From Escherichia coli (lineage in GTDB: Bacteria > Pseudomonadota > Gammaproteobacteria > Enterobacterales > Enterobacteriaceae), in assembly GCF_009931435.1 (NCBI RefSeq), contig NZ_CP043414.1: 64,000 bases of DNA. One strand, written 5' to 3'. Numbering within the stretch: the stretch's first letter is position 1; each line of letters begins with the position of its first letter. A program made the position numbers and the translations under genes. Below, one piece after another: positions 11,755 through 63,998 of this stretch. Under the pieces are notes generated by a model that ran no database searches, was not told the DNA's origin, and saw only the letters and a program-made list of their open reading frames with translations.

Positions 11755-13997
<2,243 letters not shown>

Positions 13998-56706: not shown

Positions 56707-59253
56707 TCACGAAAAATACTGCTGTAATAGCGGCGTGTCGTGATCCTGATTGGCAGGCGGCATGTTGCCGATAGATTTGGTGCGGAACGGAATCACCTGT
56801 TCACGACCATCAACCTTCACAATCTGATAGAACTGCGGCAGGTTGAAGTTGATGAAGCTTGAGCCGTAGGTAAAACGGTCGTGCGATGACGAGTAGAAGC
56901 GACTGACGTCACGCACCAGCTCCTCTTTGCTGCCTTCGCAGTGGTGATACACCTCAACCCGGTTGCTTTCGTCGAGAATGTAGATATTAAAGCCATTCTC
57001 GTCTTGCGTTTCTTCGAAGAAGAACTGGATGATCCCTTCGCTGGCAAAGCCGTCCACCACCGCCGGTAATTTGACGTGATTGGTTTCAACCTGCACTGAC
57101 AGGCCGTGCAGTTTGTTATGCGAAATAGCGCCATAAAACTCAATGGCATTTTCCAGTTTCTGTACCGATACATTCAGCCGTTCGAAGAACAACCCCCAGG
57201 TTTGACCAGAAACGCGCAGCGCCTTGAAGCGCCCTGTTTCCTGACGGGTGCTGGACAGACGCAGTTCAATACACTCAGAAACCAGTTGCTGCACGCGAGT
57301 ACGGATTAAGCCGCGCAGATGCTGGCTGTAGCAGAAGACTTCCACGCTATCTGGCGGTGCGGCGTCCTGATGCATTTTACCGAGAATAGTTTTCAGGGCT
57401 TCGATCATCGACTGCTCGCCGTTGAAGTGCAGCGTACGCACTTCGTTCCACGAGTTGCGGTACAGCAGGTCCACGCTACCTACCAGGCAATTTTGGTTTT
57501 CGCCAAAGCTGAAGACGTCCAGCTTACGGAAATCAAAATGCACCACCTGATTGCGGAACGCAGCTGTCGGGTCATATTCCAGGTTAACGATAATCGCCAG
57601 ATGGCGAATTTCACACGGGCTGTAGAGCGCTTTTGGCGTCGGTGCAGGCAGGCGCAGCGGGAAATGGTGCGACACATCGGCGACCATCTCCTGCAACTTA
57701 GGCAAATCGACAATGCCGTTGCCTTTAATATACAAGCGGGTGCGCGAGGTCAGCAGGCCGTTAAACCATGCCCACGCCACCAGTTTATTCAGGTAACGGT
57801 TATATTCCAGCGGCTGATGGCTGATGATCGACTCAATATTTGGCGCGCGGTTATACAGATACCAACCTGAACGGTTAGCCCGGCCCGGCGGCACATAAAT
57901 AAAGGTCAGATTCGGTTCCGAGAGATCGGGCGAAATCTGCGGGTTTACCAGCGTCACTTTACCTGGCAATGCTTCAAACGCGGCGTACAGTTTACGCGTC
58001 AGAACACCGATATCCTGTGGGCTGGCGGAGACGCTAAGGTTATTGCGACGCGCAAAGCGGATCAGATTACGGTAGCTCTGCATCATTGCATCGAGCAGCT
58101 CGTTGTGCGCCTCACGCACCTGATCAATCTTCCAGTTAGCGCGGTTATCGAGCATTGCAAGACGACCATCGTCCCATTCCCACTCTTTCACTAACTGGGT
58201 TAGCACTTCACGACGCCAGCCTACACAGGCGCGTTCACGGCTGAGTTTTTCGCACACTTTTAAATAGAAGCAGCGACGCACTAAATCCAGACGGGTGAAA
58301 TCTTCAATCGCCGTCAGGTATTCAGTAACACGCTCCAGCATCATGCAGTACGGATCGAGACCAAACGATACAATCTCGCCATCGTGCAAACGCTGTTTGA
58401 TATCTTTCGCCAGCAGACGTGGGTTCGGGTATTCCCAGGAATAGGCTTCCAGCAGCAGTGTTTTCAGCACCGCTTTGTATGGGGAATCGATACTCTTATA
58501 GAGCTGCCAAAGGCTGGCACCAAAGTACTCTTCGGCAGAAAGTGAGCTTAAGCCGCCGAGATCCAGCCATTCATTAGGAGTAAGCACGCCCTGCGCGTAA
58601 AGCGTCATCACATAGTCGTCGTAATGCTCTTCTTCGTCACACGGCACCATATTCCACAGAATACGCTTACCCGCGAGACGCACGGCAGTGCGATAAAATT
58701 CGTCAAGCAGCAGTATATGCTGGGTGGAGCCACAATCTTCGCCCCCCAGGCTGCCGCTTTCATTATGACGGAAGCGATTTTCATCAATCAGGAAGAAGCT
58801 AACTTCCACGCCCAGCGAGGCGGCCCAGCTTTCCAGCAGGCTGCATTTACGTTGTAGTAACTGGCGCTCTTCGCTATCAAGCCAGGATTGATGACAGACC
58901 CAGATATCCAGGTCAGAGGAACAACTTTGCCCTACGGACGAGGTGCTGCCCATGGTGTATACACCAGTAATTGGAAGCTCACCTTTCGGCGGATCCTGTA
59001 CTGACATTCCACGATACAGTTCAAGCTCGTTCAGGTAGTGGCGTTGAGTTTCATCAGGCGTGTAAAGGCAAATGCCTTTGGGAACGTTACCATCAAGGTA
59101 ACCCGGCATTAGCGGATGGTGATAGTGCAACAATGTCGGCAGTAGACTGTAGACCTGTTGGAATGCAGGCCCCATAGCAGCAAGCGCGCGATCCACACGC
59201 AATTGATTTATGGCATCCAGTCTCTGTTTCAGAGTCTCAATATAGAGGTACAA
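56707..59253 (-). CDS. cyaA: Adenylate cyclase CyaA
   Basis: 848-aa [38 protein letters not shown]...; initiation codon is TTG, as established for E. coli cyaA. Confidence 0.95.
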
Positions 59254-59404
59254 GACGTATCGCCTGATTTGCTACCCGTCATGACTGTGATTCCGCCAAC
59301 ATCAACGGTAACACGCGGCATTCGGGATATTTCGTATGTCAAAGGTAACCGTTACCACTTTTCGCGCCTGGTTTTTTTAGTTTCACGACGAAAAAATGGT
59401 CTAA

Positions 59405-59424
59405 AACGTGATCAATTTAACACC
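59405..59424. promoter_or_regulatory. Candidate CRP site in the cyaA-hemC divergent control region
   Basis: AACGTGATCAATTTAACACC, a partial match to TGTGA-N6-TCACA; cAMP-CRP repression of cyaA is established but this site is assigned by eye only. Confidence 0.3.
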
Positions 59425-59639
59425 TTGCTGATTGACCGTAAAGAAAGATGCGCTACATACAAGTGTAGCACCGTTTATTCTCTGTAAATTCCTTATTACG
59501 ACGGCGTGAAACGCCTGTCAGGATCCACTGCCAGACCTCATTTTACGGTTTGCGCAGGCGTCTACGTTTCACCACAACACTGACATCGCTCTGGCAAGGA
59601 TGTTAGGATGGACCACGGATGATAATGACGGTAACAAGC

Positions 59640-60581
59640 ATGTTAGACAATGTTTTAAGAATTGCCACACGCCAAAGCCCACTTGCACTCTGGCAGGCAC
59701 ACTATGTCAAAGACAAGTTGATGGCGAGCCATCCGGGCCTGGTCGTTGAACTGGTACCGATGGTGACGCGCGGCGATGTGATTCTTGATACGCCGCTGGC
59801 GAAAGTAGGCGGAAAAGGCTTATTTGTAAAAGAGCTGGAAGTCGCGCTCCTCGAAAATCGCGCCGATATCGCCGTACATTCAATGAAAGATGTGCCGGTT
59901 GAATTCCCGCAAGGTCTGGGGCTGGTCACCATTTGCGAGCGTGAAGATCCTCGCGATGCCTTTGTGTCCAATAACTATGACAGTCTGGATGCGTTACCTG
60001 CAGGCAGTATCGTCGGGACGTCCAGTTTACGTCGCCAGTGCCAACTGGCTGAACGCCGCCCGGATCTGATTATCCGCTCCCTGCGCGGCAACGTCGGCAC
60101 TCGCCTGAGCAAACTGGATAACGGCGAATACGATGCCATCATTCTTGCCGTAGCCGGACTAAAACGTTTAGGTCTGGAGTCACGCATTCGCGCCGCGTTG
60201 CCACCCGAGATTTCTCTTCCGGCGGTAGGACAAGGTGCGGTCGGTATTGAATGCCGCCTTAATGATACTCGCACTCGCGAGCTGCTTGCCGCGCTGAATC
60301 ACCACGAAACTGCACTGCGTGTTACCGCAGAACGCGCCATGAATACCCGTCTCGAAGGCGGATGTCAGGTGCCAATTGGTAGCTACGCCGAGCTTATTGA
60401 TGGCGAAATCTGGCTGCGTGCGCTGGTCGGCGCGCCGGACGGTTCGCAGATTATTCGCGGTGAACGCCGCGGTGCGCCGCAAGATGCCGAACAAATGGGG
60501 ATTTCGCTGGCAGAAGAGCTACTGAATAACGGCGCGCGCGAGATCCTTGCTGAAGTCTATAACGGAGACGCCCCGGCATGA
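59640..60581 (+). CDS. hemC: Porphobilinogen deaminase (hydroxymethylbilane synthase) HemC
   Basis: Track ORF 59619..60581 trimmed to [34 protein letters not shown]... (313 aa). Confidence 0.95.
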
Positions 60582-63791: not shown

Positions 63792-63998
63792 AAAAAAACG
63801 CCTGCTCTTATTACGGAGCAGGCGTTAAAACAGGTCTGTATGACAACAAGTGGGTGCTTCACTCAACGTTGTGTCCATGGTGTCTGATGAGGCATAAGCG
63901 ACATCTGTCAGTGGACGATAAGCACCGTAAACGGCTCTGCGTCATTCCGGAGTTTATGAGGCACTAAGGCGAACATAAGAGATGGAATGAGCATCTAC
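63792..63998 (-). ncRNA. glmZ: Small regulatory RNA GlmZ (SraJ)
   Basis: Reverse strand reads GTAGATGCTCATTCCATCTCTTATGTTCGCCTTAGTGCC...ACAGACCTGTTTTAACGCCTGCTCCGTAATAAGAGCAGGCGTTTTTTT, matching remembered GlmZ with its terminator hairpin and U-tract; position downstream of hemY agrees. Confidence 0.8.

Follow-up and report, generated by a model that had tools for sequence, protein, structure and literature searches.

The adenylate cyclase gene cyaA in the stretch of Escherichia coli DNA that we analyzed (64,000 nucleotides, hereafter the window) very probably starts at a TTG on the minus strand, a weak codon that, together with a weak Shine-Dalgarno (SD) element, would limit the synthesis of CyaA and would have been kept weak by selection. 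The TTG start of cyaA is confirmed here and was already known, and nothing about the observation is new; it has little significance beyond correct annotation, and biologically it is one more illustration that adenylate cyclase translation is held low in enteric bacteria and their relatives by means of a UUG start plus a weak SD. Two small additions can be made, namely the count of TTG starts, 88 of 88 informative class-I loci once the Pseudomonas type is set aside, and the measurement that the SD energy is no better than background. The gene also serves as a clean worked example of how a non-ATG start can be located by comparative sequence, given that three signals agree on its position: the onset of conservation, the onset of synonymous substitution, and upstream indels that ignore the reading frame.

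The open reading frame (ORF) concerned is assigned to cyaA on the basis of profile matches and gene order. Its predicted product scored 2047.4 bits against the NCBIfam equivalog model for class I adenylate cyclase, NF006977, above the cut-off of 1761, and the alignment is full-length (residues 1-848 on profile positions 1-848); both class-I domains of Pfam were recovered, PF12633 (Adenyl_cycl_N) at residues 5-200 (E = 1e-82) and PF01295 (Adenylate_cycl) at residues 228-825 (E = 2e-258); and the neighborhood shows hemC-cyaA-cyaY synteny. The order in the corresponding region of the BLR(DE3) RefSeq record is hemY-hemX-hemD-hemC, cyaA, cyaY, with hemC divergent from cyaA and cyaY convergent, and hemC, which encodes porphobilinogen deaminase, is also the upstream neighbor of cyaA in the Photobacterium, Vibrio-like, and Aeromonas loci described below. 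The CyaA of the window differs from the BLR(DE3) RefSeq protein at a single position, residue 363 (58165..58167, minus strand), which is Gly here and Ala there. A search by sequence of a copy of the Protein Data Bank returned no chain matching the 848-residue CyaA (56710..59253, minus strand) at E ≤ 0.001, and the class I adenylate cyclase family appears to be without a solved structure. Of 5425 complete E. coli genomes, 5412 matched the 741 nt that span the cyaA start at an identity of at least 99%. One of 5426 complete genomes had no match to the start region and is presumably without cya, and at least one E. coli genome carried two copies of the region, one of them on a record labeled plasmid.

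The sequence, the ORF list, and the translation all place the cyaA start at the TTG, the plus strand reading CAA at the same three bases; the first-pass annotation had given these coordinates correctly and had left the minus strand unstated. Around the start, the minus strand reads GGG TAG CAA ATC AGG CGA TAC GTC TTG TAC CTC TAT ATT GAG ACT CTG AAA CAG, and the translation opens with (L/M)YLYIETLKQ. That annotation had also stated that the 848-residue frame opens with TTG and has no in-frame ATG upstream within the ORF, and both statements hold: the ORF list gives TTG as the start of an 848-residue frame, and the six codons from CAA to GTC that separate the TAG from the TTG include no ATG, GTG, or TTG. 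An in-frame ATG farther 5' that has its own ribosome-binding site, which it had named as contrary evidence, was looked for and none was present. The alignment to annotated cyaA that it had proposed places the RefSeq/PGAP CDS start of the BLR(DE3) record at 59253 of the window, on the same base as the TTG, and the E. coli matches listed were all annotated as cyaA across the start site. The position of the codon, the lack of another canonical start, and the match to the annotation are thus direct observations, as is the conservation that follows. Coordinates of the features are collected in the table below.

Features of the cyaA start region, with positions in the window
Feature	Position	Strand	Evidence
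cyaA CDS, class I adenylate cyclase, 848 codons + stop	56707..59253	-	ORF, NF006977, PF12633, PF01295
First in-frame ATG of the cyaA ORF, codon 27; pick of an ATG-only gene finder, not the start	59173..59175	-	codons 2-26 conserved as protein; family profiles align from residue 1 (NCBIfam) / 5 (Pfam)
Translation initiation region, -15 to +20, AATCAGGCGATAYGTC TTG TAC CTC TAT ATT GAG AC	59234..59268	-	near-invariant in Enterobacteriaceae
TTG initiation codon, cyaA	59251..59253	-	sequence, ORF list, translation, RefSeq CDS start, TTG in 79/79 Enterobacteriaceae + 9/9 distant class-I loci
AGG, only Shine-Dalgarno-like element, -12 to -10	59263..59265	-	sequence; pairing energy
In-frame TAG closing the frame, seven codons 5' of TTG	59272..59274	-	sequence; position not conserved across species
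Conserved upstream block, putative cyaA promoter region	59395..59500	-	90-100% column identity vs ~10-30% in leader 59270..59390

For an ORF to have TTG as its first start-type codon is trivial by itself, and what carries this one beyond chance is that it has been kept in every Enterobacteriaceae locus and every distant class-I locus compared, though UUG is rare and ATG and GTG are each one substitution away. Within E. coli, the 60 nt centered on the TTG were identical in 5418 of 5425 complete genomes, and no ATG or GTG version of this 60-mer was found by a search for exact matches, which a version with an extra mismatch would escape. Across Enterobacteriaceae, for which 79 loci were sampled, each from a different species, the codon aligned to CyaA residue 1 was invariably TTG. 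A more distant set was assembled through a protein search and contig look-ups that yielded ten loci with DNA, comprising one Pseudomonas-type locus and nine class-I relatives (five Enterobacterales-like contigs, Photobacterium, a Vibrio-like contig, Aeromonas, and a Pasteurellaceae-like contig). All nine relatives, whose identity ranges from 47 to 87%, have TTG at the homologous position; they are phylogenetically non-independent, and several are metagenomic contigs. The sequences flanking the TTG are entirely different in the Photobacterium, Vibrio-like, Aeromonas, and Pasteurellaceae-like loci. The three lines of comparison agree, and together they identify the TTG as what we take to be the real start; no evidence against this start site came to light. 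Published work gives UUG as the start of cyaA in many Enterobacterales and other gammaproteobacteria (PMC5499595) and as the start of only ~3% of E. coli genes (bioRxiv 10.1101/063800).

The SD of cyaA is weak, and the sequence alone would not single out the TTG, because the energy of the SD is indistinguishable from background: the AGG, which sits in a conserved ATCAGGCGA block, pairs with the 3' end of the 16S rRNA at -2.9 kcal/mol, an energy reached at 38% of the positions within the ORF. The initiation region as a whole is strongly constrained, its synonymous sites being frozen in codons 2-6, with a mean third-position entropy (H3) of 0.28 bits over codons 2-12 versus 0.96 bits over codons 41-300, rank 2 among 288 windows of codons. 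A control on hemC from the same loci showed a similar dip in H3 (0.50 versus 1.32 bits, rank 1 of 288), and its -15 to -1 positions were similarly conserved. We therefore rejected the -15 to +20 block as a regulatory site specific to cyaA and regard its invariance as a general property of initiation regions, a 5' constraint on enterobacterial genes of the kind that Eyre-Walker and Bulmer 1993 reportedly described. Since the entire initiation region is invariant in Enterobacteriaceae, and that of hemC likewise, the invariance of the TTG inside this family is partly uninformative, and the informative cases are the nine distant loci.

In the mechanism that we favor, the UUG of cyaA would be decoded as fMet by initiator tRNA, with whose anticodon it pairs imperfectly, and in combination with the weak AGG this would make the formation of the 30S initiation complex inefficient, such that little adenylate cyclase would be produced per mRNA. 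The weak SD fits a start site tuned to low output. That the codon lowers expression is taken from the literature, in which cyclase synthesis from UUG, GUG, and AUG in the native context stood at 1:2:6 (Reddy et al. 1985, as quoted in PMC5499595). As for fitness, we infer that excess cyclase would lead to excess cAMP and so be harmful, and that selection would hence keep the codon weak. In addition, ppGpp, cold, and ribosome competition reportedly affect UUG-initiated mRNAs comparatively little (PMC5499595), which would mean that translation of cyaA is relatively favored in nutritional stress. We consider it improbable that the UUG has been kept for this further purpose, as a condition-dependent element favoring cyaA translation in nutritional stress, over and above low output. 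In a weaker variant of this proposal, the -15 to +20 block may be a candidate binding site for a trans-acting regulator; the main hint for this variant is gone, given the result of the hemC control.

A different account accepts the TTG as the start and takes its weakness to be unselected, a neutral accident frozen by constraint on the initiation region, the level of CyaA being set by the promoter, CRP feedback, and PTS control of activity. It finds some backing in the invariance of the entire -15 to +20 region within Enterobacteriaceae and the equal 5' constraint of hemC, by which the start codon is not singled out, and also in the ATG start of the Pseudomonas-type homolog and in P. putida, which is reported to keep CyaA low via a poor SD (PMC11139211), showing that TTG is not obligatory for the family. 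However, the TTG persists in the Photobacterium, Aeromonas, Vibrio-like, and Pasteurellaceae-like loci, where every neighboring nucleotide has turned over, even though the ATG and GTG codons that make up ~97% of E. coli starts (10.1101/063800) are one accessible substitution away. Moreover, mutagenesis of the codon brought a 2- to 6-fold gain, according to a quotation in PMC5499595, so that such a change would not be phenotypically silent. We accordingly give neutrality only a slim chance and retain the reading of a weak start maintained by selection.

Where the coding sequence begins is marked by a sharp change in the pattern of evolution. In the intergenic alignment of Enterobacteriaceae, column identity in the leader (59270..59390) is ~10-30%, and a near-invariant island begins sharply at 59268 (-15) and runs into the cyaA ORF. 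Upstream of approximately -15, indels of 1 nt are found in E. albertii (locus L003) and in two other loci (L037 and L085), the distance between the TTG and the nearest in-frame stop varies between 6 and 97 codons across the 79 species, and in-frame ATG, GTG, or TTG codons appear and vanish from species to species. The low identity, the frame-breaking indels, and the shifting stop indicate that the sequence 5' of about -15 is non-coding. Downstream, by contrast, the protein sequence of codons 1-45 is invariant in the 79 species, a second residue being seen only at codons 21 and 44, and many of these positions are written with two to five synonymous codons. The Enterobacterales-like loci show mostly synonymous changes at codons 2-6 (TAC/TAT, CTC/CTT, TAT/TAC, ATT/ATC, and GAG/GAA), with one non-synonymous change, Leu to Phe at codon 3. 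An unconserved, indel-ridden upstream region set against nearly exclusively synonymous change in codons 2-26 argues that translation starts at the TTG, which is the only canonical start that fits the conserved N-terminus.

The same pattern bears on the ATG of codon 27, from which an 822-residue protein would be made, with the TTG and the next 25 codons serving as an untranslated leader. This codon is the sole ATG among codons 1-48, and its SD, at -3.1 kcal/mol, is on a par with that of the TTG. As a start, it is effectively refuted by the coding signature of codons 2-26, in which the 79 species depart from synonymous change only in the second residue at codon 21; residues 2-26 are still recognizable in Vibrionaceae and Aeromonas, the NCBIfam profile and the N-terminal Pfam domain both take in residues ahead of codon 27, and mutation of the UUG alters cyclase output (PMC5499595). 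We see virtually no chance that translation begins there. Initiation at a near-cognate codon, either the ATC at -5 (59268..59266) or the ATT at codon 5 (59241..59239), has a probability close to nil and is rejected on frame and conservation. In their favor, E. coli has both codons in frame, AUU is established as a rare start codon of infC and pcnB (10.1101/063800), and the SD score of the ATC is slightly better, at -3.8 kcal/mol. Against them, 1-nt deletions put the ATC out of frame in L037 and L085, codon 5 reads ACT in L088 (Vibrio-like) and GAA in L090, the amino acids at residues 2-4 are kept through synonymous changes, and near-cognates initiate at just 1-2% of AUG (10.1101/063800).

Candidate RNA elements at the start were also evaluated. 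An RNA structure sequestering the start was rejected, as the fold of -32 to +49 did not exceed shuffled sequence in stability (z = -0.73), and so was a 5-bp hairpin at codons 7-11 (CUCUG-AAA-CAGAG), which is broken by the variants ACA/ACG/ACC and CTT/CTA and has a compensating change in a single genome. No Rfam family was found near cyaA or in its leader at the gathering threshold; gathering-level matches in the window included GlmZ (63792..63998, minus strand, 218 bits) and the 'Erse' small RNA family (13392..13643, minus strand, 309 bits). A literature search for post-transcriptional regulators of the E. coli cyaA mRNA returned nothing relevant.

Farther upstream, the conserved block listed in the table is presumably the cyaA promoter region, and a scan for the sigma-70 consensus found no cyaA promoter at the threshold used. 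The cyaA P2 promoter is repressed by cAMP-CRP, and inside the block lies a CRP-like palindrome (59407..59422, TGTTA-AATTGA-TCACG) that matches 8 of 10 consensus positions. Matches to the CRP consensus with two mismatches, as in this palindrome, numbered 24 in the window, where 27 would be expected, and the palindrome is near-invariant in ~76 Enterobacteriaceae sequences; it is conservation, and not the consensus match, that speaks for this candidate site. The hemC-cyaA intergenic region also contains, 5' of the putative cyaA promoter, a conserved inverted repeat with a perfect stem (59450..59471, GCTACA-CTTGTA-TGTAGC) followed by a T-rich run, which was flagged as terminator-like on both strands. 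On the hemC side, candidate starts fall within 59619..59642 of the plus strand, the longest ORF opening at the ATG at 59619 (320 aa) and the RefSeq CDS at 59640 (313 aa). Across 72 species, conservation is at least 90% over the 59640 ATG and the preceding 13 nt and fades further upstream, a pattern that favors the annotated 313-residue start.

Database records illustrate how a non-ATG start of this kind can be mishandled. A metagenomic call (P0019, locus L084, 218..250) extends cyaA to an upstream GTG, giving MLNTGTIRRNV-L-YLYIE, and three database proteins (P0055, P0084, and P0107) open with a literal 'L', not 'M', at the TTG. The caution about gene finders voiced in the first-pass annotation is thereby borne out.

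The closest known system is cyaA of E. coli K-12, which is the same gene with the same hemC-cyaA-cyaY neighborhood and the same annotated start base, and from which nothing of substance differs here. Its UUG start goes back to reports by Roy et al. 1983 and Reddy et al. 1985. A weak start with a different role is that of infC, whose AUU is the sensor of a demonstrated autoregulatory loop of IF3. To our knowledge, no comparable feedback through the UUG of cyaA has been reported, and in the region analyzed there was no Rfam element, supported structure, or covariation indicative of one. Other conserved non-AUG starts are the AUU of infC, the GUG of tufA/fus and hupB, and the UUG of spoT (PMC5499595), and these resemble cyaA in that a weak start has been kept across lineages and is read as setting or regulating output (PMC5499595). 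The Pseudomonas-type class I cyaA (NCBIfam PRK09450.2 group, ~950 aa) encodes a homologous enzyme, and in our sample it is represented by L091 (gene from position 601; 43% identity), which starts with ATG, has a non-homologous N-terminus that is ~15 residues longer, and is preceded by a DUF5669 gene, not by hemC. CyaA of P. putida is reported to be poorly translated as well, which has been attributed to a poor SD and not to the start codon (PMC11139211), and this suggests that P. putida and the enteric bacteria have taken different routes to the same low output of adenylate cyclase.
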